A DNA stretch of 64,000 nt, from positions 936 to 64,935 of the forward strand of contig SVKZ01000003.1 of NCBI GenBank assembly GCA_015068165.1, in the 5' to 3' direction. This document shows, piece after piece, positions 611 through 7,412 of the stretch. The first letter of the stretch is position 1, and each line of letters starts with the position of its first letter. The notes under the pieces were generated by a model. That model was not told where the DNA came from, did no database searches, and was given only the letters and a program-made list of their open reading frames with translations. The position numbers and the translations under genes are program-made. This DNA comes from Oscillospiraceae bacterium. Its GTDB lineage: Bacteria > Bacillota > Clostridia > Oscillospirales > Oscillospiraceae.

Positions 611-3600
611 TTAGACCTTTTTCTTTCTGTCAATGAAGAACCAGATCACAAATGCAACACCGCCGCAGAGGGTTACACCGGAAACGATTGCCACAATAAT
701 CAGCACTGTCTGCAGTTCATCGGTCTTTGCTTCCAAAGCACGATCCTTTGCTTCCAGCTCTGCCTTAACTGCCTCCAGTTCATTCTGCACAGCTTTAATT
801 GTTGCCTCTAATGTATTATAGGCTTCCTCAATCTTGCTGTTAAGCTCTGCTTTGTTGGCTGCATCCGCCGCTTCCAGAGCAACCTTTGCGGCTTTCAGCG
901 CCTCATTTAAGTCTGCGATCTTCGCTTCCAAAGCGGCATCGCCAGACTTGATAGCCTTCTTCAGCTCGGCCTTCGTGTTATCCAGGTTCTTTTGGACAGC
1001 CTTGATTGCCGCATCGAGGGTGGCGTTGAGTGCATCGACTTTGGTCTCCAGTTCCGCCTTATTTTCTGCATCAGCTGTTTCCAGAGCCGCCTTTGCTGCC
1101 GCCAGGGCAGTGTTCAGCTCAGAAATCTTGCTTTCCAGGGCAGTGTCGCCGTCTGCAATGGCTTTATCAAGCTCTGCTTTGGCATCATCCAAATTCTTCT
1201 GCACAGTCTTAACTGCCGCGTCCAGAGTCTTGTAGTTTTCGCTGATCTTGGCAGTCAGCTCTGCCTTGTCTGCGGCATCTGCGCTTTCAAGGGCGGTCTT
1301 TGCTGCTGTCAGGGCGGTGTTTAGATCGGAAATTTTGCCTTCCAGAGCAGTATCGCCATCTGCAATCGCCTTTTCCAGCTCTGCCTTAGCGTCGTCCAAG
1401 TTCTTCTGCACAGCCTTAACTGCTGCATCCAAAACCTTGTCGGCATTTTCAAACTTCGCTACAAGCTCTGCGTTATTCTTGGCATCGGCTTTTTCCAAAA
1501 GTTCCTTTGTACTTGCCAGCTCCGACTGCAGGGCTGCAATCTTGTCTGCCAAATCCTTGTCGCCGGACTTGATTGCAGCATCCAATTCTGCCGTTGCCTT
1601 ATCCAGGTTGCCCTGCACCTGAGCGATCTTCTCGTCCAGCTTCTTTTCGGCGGCGGCAATCTTTGCTTCCAACGCCTTATCGCTGGAAACGGCGGCTGCC
1701 TTTGCCTCGTCAATGGCCTTGTCCAGTTTTTCGACTGCTTTCGCAAGCTCTTCGGCGTTCTCGGTATCTGCCTTATTGAGTTTTTCTACAGCCTCTTCCA
1801 GATTCTTCTTAATTTCAGCAATTTTGTCTTCGTTTGCCTTTACCCGGCTTTCCAGTTCGGAAATTGCATCGTTTAGTTCTGTCTTGGCTGCTTTAATTTC
1901 TGCTTCCAGTGCAAGCTTCAGCGCCGCATCAGCATCGGTAGCAAAATTCTGCGCGGTGGTCTGTGCAAGGGTAATTGCTGCTTCAAGATCGCTGATTGCC
2001 TTTTCAAGGGCGGTAATGTCCGCTTTCTTTGCAATGGCTGCGTTAAGCTCAGTCTTCGCCTGGGTCAATGCGTTGTCTGCCGCGTCAATCGCTTCCTGCT
2101 TTGCATTTGCAATCGCTGTTTCAAACTGCTGCTTTAATGCGGTGTCCTTTGTATCGGCATAAGCCTTTGCTGCTGCCTCGGCAGTCTCAATAGCGGTTTT
2201 CAGCTCCTGAACCTTTGCATTTAGAGTTGTGGTGTCTGCCTTCTTGTCAATGGCTGTCTGAAGCTCGGTCTTTGCGTCGTTTACAAGGGTTTCCGCCGCA
2301 GAAATCGCTTCGCTCTTTGCTGTGGCAATGGCACTTTCAAGCTGCCGTTTTAAGGTTGCATCTGCACCCTTAAAATCATCCTTTGCTTCCTCAAGGGCTG
2401 TAATCTTGCCCAAAAGCTCATTCAGCTTCTGATTGACCGTGTCGGTGTCCGCTTTCTTCGCAATCAGCTCTTTGATTTCATCCACTGCCGCATTTAACTC
2501 TGTCTTGGTGGCATAGATGCTGCCCAGTGCATCAACTTTCTGTTCCAAGGTCTCGATGCGACTGATAGCCGTCTGCAGCTCTGCATCGGTAGCATAGCCA
2601 TCTATCGCGCTCTCAAGTGTTGCGATCTCCCCTTGGATAATAGCGATCTCGTCGCTAAGTTCTTTATCGGTTGCGAAAGTTTCGTCCAGCTTACTTAGCT
2701 TTTCTTCCAGCATTGCAATCTTAGCTTCAAGCTCTGCGGTGTCCGCAGTAGGCACACCAACCGTCAGTGCCAGCTCGCCCTCGGCAGCGGTATAGTTGGT
2801 AGTTTCGGTGCTCTGGATTTTGACTTTGATGGTAGAGCCGATCGCCACACCGTTATCAATGGTGATGGTGTTGCCTGTAACAGAGTAACCTTCGCCATCC
2901 AAAACGGTAAAGATCGTGGGATTCAAGAAATTGTCAATGGCACTGGTAGTGGGGGTGATTTCCATCACATAGCCACCCATAACCTTGTCCAGCGGCGCAT
3001 CTGCGAAAATGATGGGGGTTGCTTTCTTAATTTCAAAAGTTGCCGTTCCCTCGAAGTTGCCGCTGATAACCACGGTTGCGGTGCCTGCGTTTATATTGTT
3101 GCTGTAAGTAACAGTGCCGCCGTATGCCGTAGCATCAAACGGAATACCGCCAAGGTCAATATATACTGTGGGCTTCTGTTCTGAGCCATTGTAAACGATC
3201 TCCTCGAGAACCGAGCCTACGCTGATCTGACCTGCCGAAAGCTGAATAGGATTGATCGTCATATCGTAAGTAAGCGTAACATCGTTATAGTCGGGAGATC
3301 CGCTGATCTGAACGCAAACCTCATACGCACCTGCATTGGTAGGTGCGCCCATAAGCTGATTGCTGTTCTCATAGTATTTTATGGTAACATATCCTTCGAG
3401 CTCATCGGGCAGATTGGTAATTGTTACACCCTGCACACTCATATTGTACTCGGTGCTAAGACCGCTTATCGTAAAATCCGCTTCCGTAAGGGTAATCTTT
3501 TGGAAGGCAAAGGTAGCCGCCACGGTAACAGCCTTTGCAGGCATTGTGAACTTATTATCTGCCACAGCAACGGGATTGCCGTCTGCATCGGTAACGGTGA

Positions 3601-5371
3601 GAGAAGTCAGTGCGTAATTCTCCGCGGGGGTAACGGTAAGGGTGATGACCTCACCTGCCACCGCGTCAATGTTGCTGGCAGATACAGAGCCTTGTGCTGT
3701 TGCCGTAGGTACAGTTACGGTATAAGTAACCTTATTGAAATATTTTGGTGTTGCAGCTGCGTCGTAGTACACGGTCTTGCCAGTCAGACTGGGGTAATCC
3801 TGATTGCCGATGGTCTGCTTCCAAGCGGTGAACGCGTTTGCATTGGTGGTTCCTTGTGTTGATAGATAATATGTTACCTCACCTGATTTCACCTGCTCGG
3901 TGGTAAATGCTTCTCCTTTATAGGTATATCCCTTGGTAGAATTATACACATCCGAATCATAGGCGCAATAATTGCACGTTGTATAGTCTCCGCCAATCGG
4001 ACCAAAACGCGTACTGGTAGAATTACTCAGGGTAACAGTTGCACTGCTAAAGCAGGAGTAACAGGTTGCGTTGTAACCTGCGATACCGCCCGCAGCAGTG
4101 GTCGAACCATTATAGGTTGCAACGATTGCCATCCCGTGGTTATAACAACCGATAACTTTGGTCTGGAAACCATTTCCAACAATACCGCCAACATTGTAAT
4201 GACCGGTCGCGCTACCCCCGATAACACCACAATTCTTGATCGTATTCATATTAGAGGTGTTGCCATAACTGTAACCAACCACGCCTGCTACCGGGGCACT
4301 CGTGCTGGTAATCGTACTGTTCTCCACGAAGCAGTTTGTAACAGCATTTGTACCATCAACATACTTAAGCTGACCCACAATACCGCCTACATTCTGCGCA
4401 CCAACGGAAATACTGGCATTTTTTACGGTACAATCAGAAACGGAAGCGTCCTCAGCATAGCCGACAATACCGCCATAATTGCTGGTTGCTGCATATGTAC
4501 CGGTAATACTGCACCCGGTAGCGTGGCAGTCAGTTACATTTGCGTTGACTACAGCGCCGACCACACTACCAACGCGCGTCGGAGAACTTGTATAGGATAT
4601 GGCAACATTGGTTGCTGTGCAATTTTTGATAGATGTACCATCCAGATATCCCGCTACCGCACCAACGCCGGGATTGATTGCGGAGATCGTGCCGCCAGTT
4701 ACATGGCAGTTTTCTACAGTGGTGCCGTTCGTCATATAACCGATAATGGCACTTACACCGTACCGCGTAGAACCAAATTTGGTCGATGCAATTGAGGGAT
4801 TCTTTACTGTGATATTCTTTACTGTGCCGCCGTTGCTGTAAGCCACAAGTCCCGCAACATATTGATAAGCGGCAGAAACGACGGGGGCATCCAGCGTCAG
4901 ATTCATTACCGTGCCGCTGAGATTGCCGAACAATCCTCTGTAGCCATTGTAGCCGTAAGCCTCGGCAGGCGTAGTAGAGCTTAAATTAGAAATCGTCATA
5001 CCGTTGCCATCCAGCACACCGGCAAAGTTATTTGCTTTTGCTGTTGCAGCCGTTTGATTTTTAGTGTGATAACCGCCGATAGGCGTCCAGTTATAGGTCG
5101 CACCGGCAAGGTCAAGATTCGCACCCAGCTTAAAATAGGTGTTTGTATAGGTCGTGCCGCCATTTACATCAGCGGCAAGCTTTGCAAGCTGTTCCGCAGT
5201 CATAATGACATAGGGGGTAGCCTCCGAGCCGGAGCCGCTTTCCCACGCCTGAGATGCCGCTGTGCCATCCCAAGTATCTGTTTCCGCAGCACTTGCTGTC
5301 ATCGCAAACGCCGGGAGCATTGCTAAGACCATCACGATAACGAATATGGTGGTTAAGAATCCTTTTTTCAT
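611..5371 (-). CDS. 1586-aa cell-surface fibrillar protein: signal peptide, GLUG-like beta-helical repeats, Ig/MBG-like modules, ~700-aa coiled-coil stalk, C-terminal TM anchor
   Basis: AAGGAGG RBS before ATG 5371; MKKGFLTT...ASA signal peptide; repeated VGGIVG/GAVAG + VxNC motifs; A/K/E/L-rich helical repeats; hydrophobic C-terminus followed by DRKKKV. Confidence 0.9.
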   Translation of the reverse strand: MKKGFLTTIFVIVMVLAMLPAFAMTASAAETDTWDGTAASQAWESGSGSEATPYVIMTAEQLAKLAADVNGGTTYTNTYFKLGANLDLAGATYNWTPIGGYHTKNQTAATAKANNFAGVLDGNGMTISNLSSTTPAEAYGYNGYRGLFGNLSGTVMNLTLDAPVVSAAYQYVAGLVAYSNGGTVKNITVKNPSIASTKFGSTRYGVSAIIGYMTNGTTVENCHVTGGTISAINPGVGAVAGYLDGTSIKNCTATNVAISYTSSPTRVGSVVGAVVNANVTDCHATGCSITGTYAATSNYGGIVGYAEDASVSDCTVKNASISVGAQNVGGIVGQLKYVDGTNAVTNCFVENSTITSTSAPVAGVVGYSYGNTSNMNTIKNCGVIGGSATGHYNVGGIVGNGFQTKVIGCYNHGMAIVATYNGSTTAAGGIAGYNATCYSCFSSATVTLSNSTSTRFGPIGGDYTTCNYCAYDSDVYNSTKGYTYKGEAFTTEQVKSGEVTYYLSTQGTTNANAFTAWKQTIGNQDYPSLTGKTVYYDAAATPKYFNKVTYTVTVPTATAQGSVSASNIDAVAGEVITLTVTPAENYALTSLTVTDADGNPVAVADNKFTMPAKAVTVAATFAFQKITLTEADFTISGLSTEYNMSVQGVTITNLPDELEGYVTIKYYENSNQLMGAPTNAGAYEVCVQISGSPDYNDVTLTYDMTINPIQLSAGQISVGSVLEEIVYNGSEQKPTVYIDLGGIPFDATAYGGTVTYSNNINAGTATVVISGNFEGTATFEIKKATPIIFADAPLDKVMGGYVMEITPTTSAIDNFLNPTIFTVLDGEGYSVTGNTITIDNGVAIGSTIKVKIQSTETTNYTAAEGELALTVGVPTADTAELEAKIAMLEEKLSKLDETFATDKELSDEIAIIQGEIATLESAIDGYATDAELQTAISRIETLEQKVDALGSIYATKTELNAAVDEIKELIAKKADTDTVNQKLNELLGKITALEEAKDDFKGADATLKRQLESAIATAKSEAISAAETLVNDAKTELQTAIDKKADTTTLNAKVQELKTAIETAEAAAKAYADTKDTALKQQFETAIANAKQEAIDAADNALTQAKTELNAAIAKKADITALEKAISDLEAAITLAQTTAQNFATDADAALKLALEAEIKAAKTELNDAISELESRVKANEDKIAEIKKNLEEAVEKLNKADTENAEELAKAVEKLDKAIDEAKAAAVSSDKALEAKIAAAEKKLDEKIAQVQGNLDKATAELDAAIKSGDKDLADKIAALQSELASTKELLEKADAKNNAELVAKFENADKVLDAAVKAVQKNLDDAKAELEKAIADGDTALEGKISDLNTALTAAKTALESADAADKAELTAKISENYKTLDAAVKTVQKNLDDAKAELDKAIADGDTALESKISELNTALAAAKAALETADAENKAELETKVDALNATLDAAIKAVQKNLDNTKAELKKAIKSGDAALEAKIADLNEALKAAKVALEAADAANKAELNSKIEEAYNTLEATIKAVQNELEAVKAELEAKDRALEAKTDELQTVLIIVAIVSGVTLCGGVAFVIWFFIDRKKKV

Positions 5372-5411
5372 TATGTATTTCCTCCTTATGGAAATGATTT
5401 GCAAATTAATA

Positions 5412-5445
5412 ATTGCGGTGTCTGCTCCATTGCGGTGTCTGCTCC
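5412..5445. repeat. Perfect 17-bp tandem duplication ATTGCGGTGTCTGCTCC x2
   Basis: Read directly at 5412-5428 and 5429-5445. Confidence 0.9.
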
Positions 5446-5472
5446 GCAGACGGATTTATACGTTCCGTTTGT

Positions 5473-5496
5473 GGAATGCATAAATGCATTCCCTAC
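5473..5496 (-). repeat. GTAG-type REP-like hairpin
   Basis: Minus strand GTAG-GGAATGCAT-TT-ATGCATTCC. Confidence 0.55.
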
Positions 5497-5511
5497 AATA
5501 CGTTATGCATT

Positions 5512-5868
5512 CTATGCTGGCTTTCGCCTTGCGGTGCAGGTGCAGATACCCAGCAATTCTTCACATTTTTGGTAGTGGGCGCAGTGGAAGCAGGTGCTGT
5601 CGTCGTCCTTTTCACCCTTAAAGTGTTTGCATATGTCTTGCATTGCCGTTGCGAAGGGGATGCCGTCATCCGTATAGACAGGACACGCTGCAAAGTTCGG
5701 ATAGATTTCCACTGGGTCATTATATTTACTGTAACGGTCTTTTTCTTCGTAGTACCCGTAGTAGAGAGGGAATTCCTTCCCGTGGGAGGTAAGCACTTTG
5801 TAGAGCTGCCCTTCCTTGGGAATGACCCGCTCTTCCAAAGCTGCCCCTAAATTTTCAAGACCAAGCAT
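5512..5868 (-). CDS. 118-aa cysteine-rich hypothetical protein (putative metal-binding)
   Basis: AAAGGAGG RBS before ATG 5868; 7 Cys including C-x2-C-x5-C-x6-C-x-C; no signal peptide. Confidence 0.8.
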   Translation of the reverse strand: MLGLENLGAALEERVIPKEGQLYKVLTSHGKEFPLYYGYYEEKDRYSKYNDPVEIYPNFAACPVYTDDGIPFATAMQDICKHFKGEKDDDSTCFHCAHYQKCEELLGICTCTARRKPA

Positions 5869-5996
5869 CGCCTTCCTCCTTTCCAAATTTTGCTAAAAGA
5901 AAATCTGCCATATTTGTTAAATAAAGTATAGCAGACTGTTTTTTGGCGCGGTACTACCTAAAAAGTATTATTTAGATATATAAAACGGTACCTGAG

Positions 5997-6025
5997 TATA
6001 TCTTTTTAGTGGGTAAAAAGATATA
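5997..6025. promoter_or_regulatory. Candidate operator: 12-bp inverted repeat TATATCTTTTTA-N5-TAAAAAGATATA
   Basis: Perfect IR upstream of an extended -10 (TGcTATACT, 5925-5933, minus strand). Confidence 0.45.
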
Positions 6026-6111
6026 TAAATTTTCGACTCGATAACAATTTTTGAAATAAAACAGAGTATTTACCATTAAAACACATTGTTTCCTTATCAG
6101 ATTGTCAATAA

Positions 6112-6160
6112 ATAATATTCGCCAAGACGAACGGTTATCGCTCGTCTTGGCGAATATTAT
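6112..6160 (-). terminator. Long hairpin downstream of the regulator gene (19-bp perfect stem)
   Basis: ATAATATTCGCCAAGACGA / TCGTCTTGGCGAATATTAT. Confidence 0.6.
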
Positions 6161-6176
6161 AAGATGGCTTTTTGTA

Positions 6177-7412
6177 TTACAAAATAGCGGCAAAATCCTC
6201 ACGGGTCAGACCGGACTTTTCACTTACGATACGGATCGCCTGCTTGACGATGGGAATGGATAGGTGGAGATTGTCGGCAATTTCCTGGTTGCTCATACCA
6301 AACGCCGCCAGCTTGGCAACCTCCCGCTCCTTTGCGGAAAGGGTGGTTAGGATCGTCTTTCCGCGAACTGCGCCGGAGAGCTTCGACCAGCCTTCGTTGT
6401 AGGTTTTGTAGAGCTTCTTTACCTCCTGCCAGGCATCCGGATCGATGGCGGACAGCTGCTTTTCCATTAAGCTGTCCAGCGCCCGGCAGTATTCTGCCAG
6501 TAAGCCGTAAAATTTATCGGGAAGGGCAAGGGCTAAGGCTCTGTCGATATGCCGAATGGCCTGCTCGTCGTTGCCGCAGTTGTGATAAACGGCGGCGCAG
6601 GTCAGACGCAGATAAATTTCCGACATAACGGTGTTTTTCTCATTTGCCCAGCAGATCATCGGCTCTAAAGTATAGGGAACGGAGGTCATAACATAAAGAC
6701 CCTCTGCGCCCGGCAATTTCAGCACACCCGTTGCCACGGAGTAGGCTACAGCGTACAGAAACTTTGCGTAATAGACCTTTGCCGCCGGGTAAGCGTCCTT
6801 GTGCAGCGGCTCAAAACAGCCGATTTGGAACCATTTTGGGAAGCTTTGGACATTATAAAGCATAATATCCACCGCGCTGATGGCAAGGAGCATCGTGTCC
6901 CGGTCGTCATCGGATTTGGCGGGGGCTTCGGCAATATGTATTTTGGCTCTTCGCCACATTAGGATGTCGCCCTTCCATATGGCGCACATAGCGAGCAGCA
7001 TACCCGCAGACAAAACCGCATAAAAGCCGGAGTGCTTGCCCAAAAGATAGTTGGCGCTCTCATAGACTTTATCAATATTGCCCCGGGAGTAGGCAACCTC
7101 CGCTTCAAAAAGTACCTGGGCCTCGTGGTTAAAAGCAAGGCTCTCGCCAACAGAGTCAGCAGTGCCGGGGGTGTGGTACAGGTCGGTCATATAAAGAAAT
7201 GGCGTCTTGCGGGGCAGGGGCATATCCTGATTGATAAGCGTACGGCCGGCTTTGGTTCTGCCATCCACCGGCTTTTGGGCGTTTTTGGGGATCATCCAGT
7301 CCCGTCCAAAGCGCACCGCACCCTCGATTTTTCCGCTGGAGCACAGAAGCTGTACACGGCGGATGCCCAGCCCCCATAGTTTTGCGATTTCCTCAATTTT
7401 TAGATATTCCAT
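6177..7412 (-). CDS. Transcriptional regulator: N-terminal excisionase/MerR-like HTH, helical (TPR/MalT-like) middle, C-terminal LuxR HTH
   Basis: N-term LKIEEIAKLWGLGIRRVQLLCSSGKIEGAVRFGRDWMIP; C-term LSAKEREVAKLAAFGMSNQEIADNLHLS; RBS AGGAAGG. Confidence 0.85.
   Translation of the reverse strand: MEYLKIEEIAKLWGLGIRRVQLLCSSGKIEGAVRFGRDWMIPKNAQKPVDGRTKAGRTLINQDMPLPRKTPFLYMTDLYHTPGTADSVGESLAFNHEAQVLFEAEVAYSRGNIDKVYESANYLLGKHSGFYAVLSAGMLLAMCAIWKGDILMWRRAKIHIAEAPAKSDDDRDTMLLAISAVDIMLYNVQSFPKWFQIGCFEPLHKDAYPAAKVYYAKFLYAVAYSVATGVLKLPGAEGLYVMTSVPYTLEPMICWANEKNTVMSEIYLRLTCAAVYHNCGNDEQAIRHIDRALALALPDKFYGLLAEYCRALDSLMEKQLSAIDPDAWQEVKKLYKTYNEGWSKLSGAVRGKTILTTLSAKEREVAKLAAFGMSNQEIADNLHLSIPIVKQAIRIVSEKSGLTREDFAAIL

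Follow-up and report, generated by a model that had tools for sequence, protein, structure and literature searches.

How do uncultured gut Clostridia control the making of their largest surface proteins? Giant adhesins decide what gut anaerobes attach to, be it mucus, fibre, host cells or each other, and to our knowledge almost nothing is known about how they are controlled in uncultured Oscillospiraceae and their relatives. The question is raised by a locus in a 64,000-nucleotide stretch of the genome of an Oscillospiraceae bacterium (assembly GCA_015068165.1, contig SVKZ01000003.1, forward-strand positions 936 to 64,935; hereafter the window, numbered from its first letter). Three genes follow one another there on the minus strand: a regulator of 411 amino acids (aa; 7412-6177), a small cysteine-rich protein of 118 aa, which we call the Cys4 protein (5868-5512), and a giant surface protein, or fibre, of 1586 aa (5371-611). 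An earlier note, made from the sequence alone, had described these three co-oriented genes and proposed that the regulator activates a transcript carrying the other two; order and orientation are indeed as it described. We propose, giving this account roughly even chances, that the locus is a self-contained adhesin expression cassette, in which the regulator would activate an operon for the Cys4 protein and the adhesin, and the Cys4 protein would in turn modulate the regulator. Full-text literature searches found no paper describing such a cassette.

The evidence that the genes belong together comes from their recurrence. A scan of one genome per species (185,579 species) found the small gene at 310 loci, all in one order of Clostridia, and the linkage counts given here refer to the best 80 of these 310 (fetched genomic stretches are denoted L and homologous proteins P, each with a number). 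All 80 stem from metagenome-assembled genomes of animal gut origin (ruminants and deer among the hosts), whose labels are Oscillospiraceae, Faecousia, Acutalibacteraceae, Christensenellaceae or no more than Clostridia. Enough upstream sequence to look for the regulator was available in 77, and in 74 of these a regulator homologue lay immediately 5' of the small gene on the same strand; in an earlier set of loci the two genes adjoined each other in 20 of 21 cases, very distant pairs included. The downstream open reading frame (ORF) was complete in 47 loci and had a median length of 2025 aa, with at least 1000 aa in 33 of the 47 and a signal-peptide-like N-terminus in all but one (46/47). From the stop of the small gene to the next start the distance was mostly -7 to +83 nucleotides, and ATGA overlaps occurred. 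Because the arrangement recurs in independent genomes (74/77 testable loci), it is not a chance neighbourhood. The earlier note had said in advance that its proposal depended on the two small genes occurring together and on their linkage to surface-protein genes, and both were found.

Recurrence could also be explained if the regulator controlled something else and the gene order were simply inherited synteny within a narrow clade, a view that fits the origin of all loci from one order. We consider this highly improbable, and it was already disfavoured: the flanking genes differ between loci while the trio stays together, and the spread of the small gene is patchy, reaching 15 of 301 genomes sampled from the window's order, over 10 families, and missing from all 18 further members of the window's own family among these 301. 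Moreover, the cargo is swapped while regulator, small gene and cis elements persist. Behind its signal peptide, the window's surface protein comprises GLUG beta-helix repeats, a Flg_new_2 domain and Ig-like segments; a coiled-coil stalk, repetitive and about 700 aa long, leads to a C-terminal transmembrane anchor with a basic tail. At other loci the cargo comprises many VWA-DUF7601-FctA-DUF11 adhesins with PQTGD-type sorting signals, GLUG fibres like that of the window, Flg_new_2/Cthe_2159 proteins, and proteins without any Pfam domain. The VWA-FctA-DUF11 proteins (L080, L094, L096, L099, L111, L125 and others) have C-termini in which PQTGD or PKTGD is followed by a hydrophobic stretch and then a basic tail, which we read as predicted sortase signals of the (S/P)PxTG rather than the LPxTG type.

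Because the cargo is not one family and the flanks change while the trio stays, we take the conserved unit to be regulator, small protein and control region, with the surface protein as the exchangeable part. Full-length or two-ended regulator matches also occur in many genomes of the order sample that have no small gene. Ten loci with a regulator relative and no small gene were retrieved for inspection, and in eight of them the regulator stood immediately before a gene for a signal-peptide protein with no small gene between; in five of those eight (L055, L056, L058, L060 and L061) the cargo was complete and measured 716-1858 aa. One genome of the order sample, G279, falls among these small-gene-less loci although its regulator is a close relative (E 1e-133). 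Taken over the more distant full-length relatives at L055-L061 and G279 together, the signal-peptide proteins directly downstream measure 684-1858 aa. The link between regulator and surface gene is thus more general than the trio. Because regulator relatives, that of G279 included, directly precede surface genes without it, the small gene is an optional accessory of one large regulator sub-clade plus a few distant members.

What would connect the regulator to the genes behind it? Alignment of the spacers between regulator and small gene brought out the control elements. On the minus strand of the window, a 4-1-4 palindrome, GGTAGTACC (5958-5950), lies 19 nucleotides upstream of the -10 hexamer, at about -40 to -32, and the hexamer is part of the extended -10 element TGCTATACT (5933-5925). 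No -35 match accompanies it and the promoter scan found no full sigma-70 promoter here, which agrees with the earlier description of an extended -10 lacking a good -35. Among 75 distinct upstream regions, the hexamer reads TATACT, TATAAT or TATGCT in 65, TGC precedes it in 67, and the box GGTAATAC starts exactly 28 nucleotides before it in 36. The box follows the regulator clade: it is present in 34 of the 37 loci in which the regulator shares at least 55% identity with the window's, the other three carrying the variant GGATATAC, and in none of the 27 loci with less similar regulators, which have TTTTTCTATGCAA or GGGGCGTTCACAA at the same position instead. Even the distant cassettes without a small gene (L056-L061) show a GGGTGAT-type box, about 20 nucleotides and then TGTTATAAT, again without a -35. 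We therefore propose GGTAGTACC as a candidate binding site of the regulator. An activator-dependent promoter, which the earlier note had suspected, is the best reading of the control region, because a clade-specific box at fixed offset and an extended -10 without -35 recur across the whole regulator family. Further upstream lies a distal inverted repeat, ATATATC-N17-GATATAC (6026-5996, minus strand), whose 17-nucleotide spacing is fixed and whose inner sequence varies; it recurs in the form ATATATC-N17-GATATAT with an identical spacer in L014, L052, L007 and L032, which carry close relatives of the regulator.

The -10 element also forms part of a hairpin. In the window this dual element spans 5937-5892 on the minus strand, with TGCTATACT in its 5' arm, a 3' arm at 5912-5902 and a T-run at 5903-5895, about 34 nucleotides ahead of the small gene's start codon; the hairpin ends 20-35 nucleotides short of that codon in about 88 of 95 loci. 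Its consensus is ATCTGCTATACTGTT-loop-AACAGTATGGCAGAT, then TTTTCTTTTT. With a stem of 12-15 base pairs (bp) followed by TTTTCTTTT, it has the sequence features of an intrinsic terminator, and we regard hairpin and T-run as a predicted Rho-independent terminator. A covariance model built from 14 copies and searched across 1.37 Mb gave one match per locus, always at this position, the only other matches being weaker ones on the reverse strand of the same palindromes. In 56 distinct copies 91% of the cells were paired, and 9 of 15 pairs had changed on both sides (52 cells); none of 500 shuffles reached the observed values, and slid controls were 29-48% paired. Where the hexamer has changed to TATAAT or TATGCT, the 3' arm has changed to match (pairs 11 and 12). 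A palindrome serving as the operator of a dimeric protein was considered and set aside, as the loop length of 3 to about 60 nucleotides fits a nucleic-acid hairpin instead. A promoter inside a terminator hairpin, kept by compensatory mutations, would be an unusual architecture of gene control. It needs further explanation, because the 5' arm would be missing from any RNA that starts at the embedded -10. Most simply, the hairpin would be an insulating terminator against transcription from the regulator gene.

The same hairpin admits another explanation, the main rival to ours: leader attenuation with operon-specific antitermination. Here transcription would start upstream of the hairpin, with polymerase either reading through from the regulator gene or using a weak promoter near TTGTAC/GGTAATAC, and hairpin and U-run would be a leader terminator. 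Sigma-bound polymerase could pause early in transcription at the -10-like TATACT. The Cys4 protein, alone or with the regulator, would make polymerase termination-resistant through the 5-8 kb gene, and would correspond in function to lambda Q, RfaH/LoaP or Bacteroides UpxY. The compensatory changes and the variable loop fit an RNA structure better than a protein operator, the hairpin keeps its place shortly ahead of the small gene, the length of the cargo genes is exceptional, and the small gene comes first in a long operon, as does UpxY, the first gene of Bacteroides capsule loci. Yet the small protein has no similarity to NusG/KOW, Q or RNA-binding folds (Pfam, PHROGs, Foldseek), and it was rejected as a homologue of lambda Q or of NusG/RfaH/LoaP/UpxY for lack of a match in Pfam, PHROGs or Foldseek (PDB, BFVD). 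Upstream of the hairpin, conservation does not extend to any good sigma-A promoter; the one candidate, TTGTAC-18-TAATAC, lacks the final T of the -10 and was judged poor. In addition, distant cassettes that have neither hairpin nor small gene keep the layout of box and extended -10, and the small gene sits downstream of the very terminator it would have to overcome. We hold attenuation to be unlikely.

An activator-dependent promoter calls for an activator, and the regulator protein is the candidate. The earlier note had read it as a protein with DNA-binding domains at both ends and neither receiver domain nor P-loop, and this picture was recovered both by the Pfam scan and by an AlphaFold2 model. 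At the N-terminus, residues 6-47 score 24.8 bits for the HTH_17/excisionase-type helix-turn-helix (HTH), just short of the cut-off of 27, and also match a PHROG family of excisionases (E 7.8e-7); a precomputed PF12728 (HTH_17) match is listed for many homologues. Residues 360-388 belong to the GerE/LuxR HTH family (PF00196; 27.6 bits, above the cut-off of 23.5), and the family profile matched in the PDB only the DNA-binding domains of VraR, NarL and GerE (E 4e-5 to 2e-3). Between the two HTHs there were only weak Pfam matches to tetratricopeptide repeats (TPR), among them TPR_MalT at 13.8 bits against a cut-off of 45, and the Pfam and NCBIfam scans found no receiver (Response_reg), P-loop or nucleoside triphosphatase (NTPase) domain. 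In the model, built from 54 homologues (predicted local distance difference test, pLDDT, 88), a winged HTH (1-45) is followed by a poorly ordered linker with the conserved sequence MPLPRKTPFLYMTDLY, which leads into an all-helical repeat (about 85-350) and then the C-terminal HTH. Foldseek ranked TPR proteins closest to it, namely APC subunits and Rap phosphatases, none of them at a significant level (E at least 0.025). TPR-like domains are of a kind that binds peptides or proteins. The family is large, with more than 2000 homologue clusters, and carries the name "hypothetical protein" wherever it is named.

Known regulators share some of these parts. Like the MalT/LAL type of LuxR activators, the cassette regulator has a C-terminal GerE HTH after a TPR-like repeat, with a weak TPR_MalT match; unlike them, it lacks the defining STAND/P-loop NTPase, measures only 411 aa and adds an N-terminal HTH_17-like winged helix, which would give it two DNA-binding modules. 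It also falls outside the NarL-type response regulators, having no receiver domain and a winged HTH at its N-terminus. The RRNPP regulators (Rap, NprR, PlcR, Rgg, PrgX) resemble it in layout, with an HTH at the N-terminus and behind it a TPR-type superhelix to which a small partner binds, and Rap proteins of phage and Bacillus are among its best Foldseek neighbours, at a non-significant level (TM-score 0.37-0.40, E about 0.15-0.2). In contrast to RRNPP proteins, however, its HTH is excisionase/MerR-like and not XRE-like, an extra LuxR HTH is present, and the small gene beside it encodes a folded cytoplasmic Cys4 protein of 118 aa without signal peptide and not a secreted pro-peptide; it is not a member of that class.

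The regulator gene has a putative promoter of its own. A sigma-A promoter with TTGACA at 7495-7490, a 16-nucleotide spacer and TATAAT at 7473-7468 (7495-7468 overall, minus strand) precedes it, as the earlier note had recognized; with 12 of 12 consensus positions it is the best match in the 7.2 kb scanned, and many homologous regulators are preceded by a comparable TTGACA-N17-TGTATAAT promoter. Between this promoter and the start codon the window has a single, degenerate copy, TTCGTCAAGACGAG (7463-7450, minus strand), of the palindrome TTCGY-N4-RCGAA, and related loci (L065-L143) have two to four copies in the corresponding stretch. Over the 180-nucleotide leaders of 74 loci the motif occurs 6.1 times per kb, vs 0.05 per kb elsewhere in those loci, an enrichment of about 120-fold, and the palindrome may serve as an operator for autoregulation or else form a small hairpin in the RNA. 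The leader palindromes also appear as ...GGCG-N5-CGAACAATA direct repeats. Two mutually complementary copies of the same motif make up a hairpin with a 20-bp stem behind the regulator gene (6158-6114, minus strand). The strong hairpin that the earlier note had placed there is present, but it is particular to the window: the region between regulator and small gene measures 311 nucleotides here vs 106-220 in 15 related loci, and the hairpin was found in none of these 15 spacers. Because of this absence it is not part of the conserved design, and it is probably an extra terminator or a motif insertion. The whole window holds five TTCGY-N-RCGAA palindromes vs 1.2 expected; two more of them, TTCGTCGAAGACGAA and TTCGCCGTGAGCGAA, lie at 161-192, just upstream of a tRNA-His gene.

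The third component is the Cys4 protein. Its gene has a strong ribosome-binding site, GGAGG, and the product has seven cysteines and no signal peptide. Four of the cysteines, C80, C93, C96 and C109, are invariant in all 90 aligned sequences, the most distant included; C111 is kept in 80 of the 90 and C102 in only 42. The motifs YYGYYE and EIYPDF are conserved, the C-terminal tail is basic, and the cysteines include a CxxC pair. We read the invariant pattern as the predicted signature of a four-cysteine metal site. The AlphaFold2 model (pLDDT 88) is mostly beta and had no structural neighbour with E below 1 in the PDB or BFVD (Foldseek), and the profile had no sequence match in the PDB. Likewise no Pfam, NCBIfam or PHROG family was found, the homologues carry no precomputed Pfam domain, and the sole Pfam match, zf-CCCH_8 at 19 bits, lies below the cut-off of 34.6; Cys_rich_VLP and Cys_rich_KTR, known small cysteine-rich families of Clostridia, did not match. 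A word-based search returned 67 homologue clusters, none with a Pfam domain or an informative name, and an exhaustive profile search of 1.84 billion representatives returned 209 homologues. By these comparisons the small protein appears to belong to no described family. It was also rejected as a zinc-binding anti-sigma factor (ZAS, H-x3-C-x2-C), as no histidine stands four residues before C93 (DDDSTCFHC) and zf-HC2/RsrA did not match.

The company that the small domain keeps elsewhere bears on its function. At L145 (7391-8669), a 222-aa protein consists of the small domain and a C-terminal extension of about 110 aa without Pfam match, and its gene overlaps by 17 nucleotides the gene of a 208-aa protein with a faint Sigma70_r4 match, an overlap that we read as translational coupling. 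Around them lie an HTH_3 repressor-like gene, a methyltransferase, AAA ATPases and an S24 peptidase, with no large secreted protein adjoining, and the region looks like a mobile element or prophage. The sub-family with this extension includes P0287, P0276, P0258, P0265 and P0199, of which P0287 is a 424-aa fusion of both parts whose N-terminal half is 45% identical to the 208-aa protein. In P0227, the LuxR end of a cassette regulator is joined to the small domain. Because the small domain is thus twice tied to a LuxR/sigma-4-type HTH protein, the comparison favours a role in transcription over one in export.

Two known kinds of small partner come to mind. TraM is a small anti-activator of the LuxR-type TraR, and its gene is switched on by TraR (Agrobacterium Ti plasmids); by analogy, the cassette too encodes a protein of about 11-13 kDa in the putative regulon of a LuxR-type activator, with potential for feedback. 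Sequence and fold are dissimilar, however, TraM being helical and without a metal site, and for the cassette the interaction is our proposal. The WhiB-like (Wbl) iron-sulphur proteins of Actinobacteria, which bind region 4 of sigma-A, are likewise small and cytoplasmic, with four invariant cysteines including a CxxC and a basic C-terminal tail, and the Cys4 protein is genetically tied, and in one sub-family fused, to sigma-4/LuxR-type HTH proteins. The spacing C-x12-C-x2-C-x5-C in the window had suggested membership, which we rejected: the Wbl motif is C-x(14-22)-C-x2-C-x5-C, the cysteine after x5 is the poorly kept C102 (42/90), and the Whib Pfam profile did not match. Moreover, Wbl proteins are helical whereas the cassette protein is predicted to be mostly beta, and its lineage is Clostridia. 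A bolder extension would make the Cys4 protein the founder of a new Firmicutes class of metal/redox cofactors that dock on LuxR/sigma-4-type HTHs, a WhiB-like counterpart with a new fold, which together with the dual-HTH regulator runs a switch whose terminator hairpin and -10 are written into one and the same stretch of DNA. We regard this as a long shot. If it were true, adhesin expression would be decided by termination of read-in vs activated initiation, or by antitermination.

Could the Cys4 protein instead serve the cargo, as a cytoplasmic chaperone, targeting or maturation factor that keeps the giant pre-protein export-competent and is co-translated with it from the same mRNA? The tight or even overlapping coupling to the giant gene would suit such a helper, and three loci (L064, L107 and L103) keep the small gene beside a large surface gene without an adjacent regulator. 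At L120 (3558-10478) the small domain stands in frame with the giant ORF, in one reading frame of 2306 aa, which may be a real fusion or else the product of a lost stop codon or assembly error. On the other hand, the cargo proteins are mutually unrelated, which makes a sequence-specific chaperone unlikely; the small protein is far more conserved than the cargo; at L145 the small domain has an HTH protein as its partner; and similar cargo is exported by many cassettes that lack the small protein. With cargo so heterogeneous, and with an HTH partner and no large secreted protein beside the small domain in its second context, a chaperone role is the less likely one, and we rate the cargo-helper explanation as distinctly unlikely.

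Our preferred account, the self-contained cassette, would thus run as follows. The regulator would be made from its own strong, constitutive-type promoter and would bind the GGTA-N-TACC box centred near -36, recruiting RNA polymerase to the extended -10 in spite of the missing -35. One transcript would carry the Cys4 gene and the giant surface-protein gene. The small protein would hold a metal centre, zinc or iron-sulphur, on its four invariant cysteines and would act back on the regulator as co-activator or anti-activator, the contact probably being made through the LuxR (sigma-4-like) HTH or the TPR-like domain. The outcome would be a feedback loop, or a loop sensitive to metal or redox state. 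The hairpin and T-run overlapping the -10 would stop read-in from the regulator gene, such that the operon fires only from the activated promoter. Gene order, linkage, domain content, the conserved cis elements and the base-pair covariation of the hairpin are shown by the sequences; the activation proposed in the earlier note, like the binding partners, the metal and the contact between the two proteins, is what we infer.

Several observations weigh against this account. The match between box and regulator clade, and that between the genes, could reflect shared descent of the cassette and not contact. The hairpin cannot pair in an RNA from the embedded -10, and its conservation is accounted for only by the added assumption of read-in; in the window an insulating terminator would moreover come second to the hairpin that already stands behind the regulator gene. 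In 3 of the 77 testable loci no regulator adjoins the small gene, with a large surface gene still next door, and in some lineages the cassette persists without the small gene. As to the fusions, the partner in P0287 has no detectable homology to the window's regulator, P0227 may be a read-through, sequencing or gene-calling artefact, and the L120 frame may be an artefact as well.

In its logic the cassette resembles, by analogy, the stand-alone adhesin regulators of Gram-positive cocci as well as activator/anti-activator pairs such as TraR-TraM. As with RofA/Nra, EbpR and Mga/AtxA, a stand-alone activator gene would stand directly before the gene of a sortase-anchored adhesin with isopeptide domains, and much of the cassette cargo is VWA-FctA-DUF11 with PQTGD sorting signals. 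Unlike those regulators, the one described here belongs to an unrelated family without Mga or PRD domains, is accompanied by an extra Cys4 component and has a hairpin overlapping the promoter. The cassette yields a defined regulator family, a candidate operator and promoter, and a putative small metal-binding protein without known fold. Because the cargo is exchangeable, regulator, small protein and promoter look like a portable expression module, which would bear on the evolution of surface variation and could be a genetic part for anaerobic Firmicutes.

The window's own genome has one small gene only, and no second copy of the cassette was found in it. The only other partial regulator match, on contig C28 (L047), was considered as a second cassette and rejected: it is a protein of the HTH_17-Fic kind, unrelated to the cassette. 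This 352-aa protein (L047:1381-2439) has a regulator-type N-terminal HTH_17 fused to a Fic-like C-terminal part with the motif FPFEDYNGRVGR. At L048 (9001-13706), a close regulator homologue (88% identical) is followed by a convergent gene for a 1115-aa Flg_new_2/LRR_5 surface protein with no small gene between, which suggests a rearranged cassette. Between small and giant gene, the window has an unusually long spacer of 140 nucleotides, which houses a perfect tandem duplication of the 17-nucleotide unit GGAGCAGACACCGCAAT in two copies (5412-5445, minus strand). A perfect 9-bp palindrome, GGAATGCAT-TT-ATGCATTCC, lies at 5473-5492, 20 nucleotides past the stop of the small gene and without a T-run after it; the palindrome may form a hairpin within the operon's RNA that affects its stability or processing. 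Finally, a G+C-rich 10-bp hairpin occupies 567-590, 20 nucleotides past the stop of the giant gene, and, because its T-run is on the plus strand only, it looks like a terminator of the tRNA-His side and not of the giant gene.

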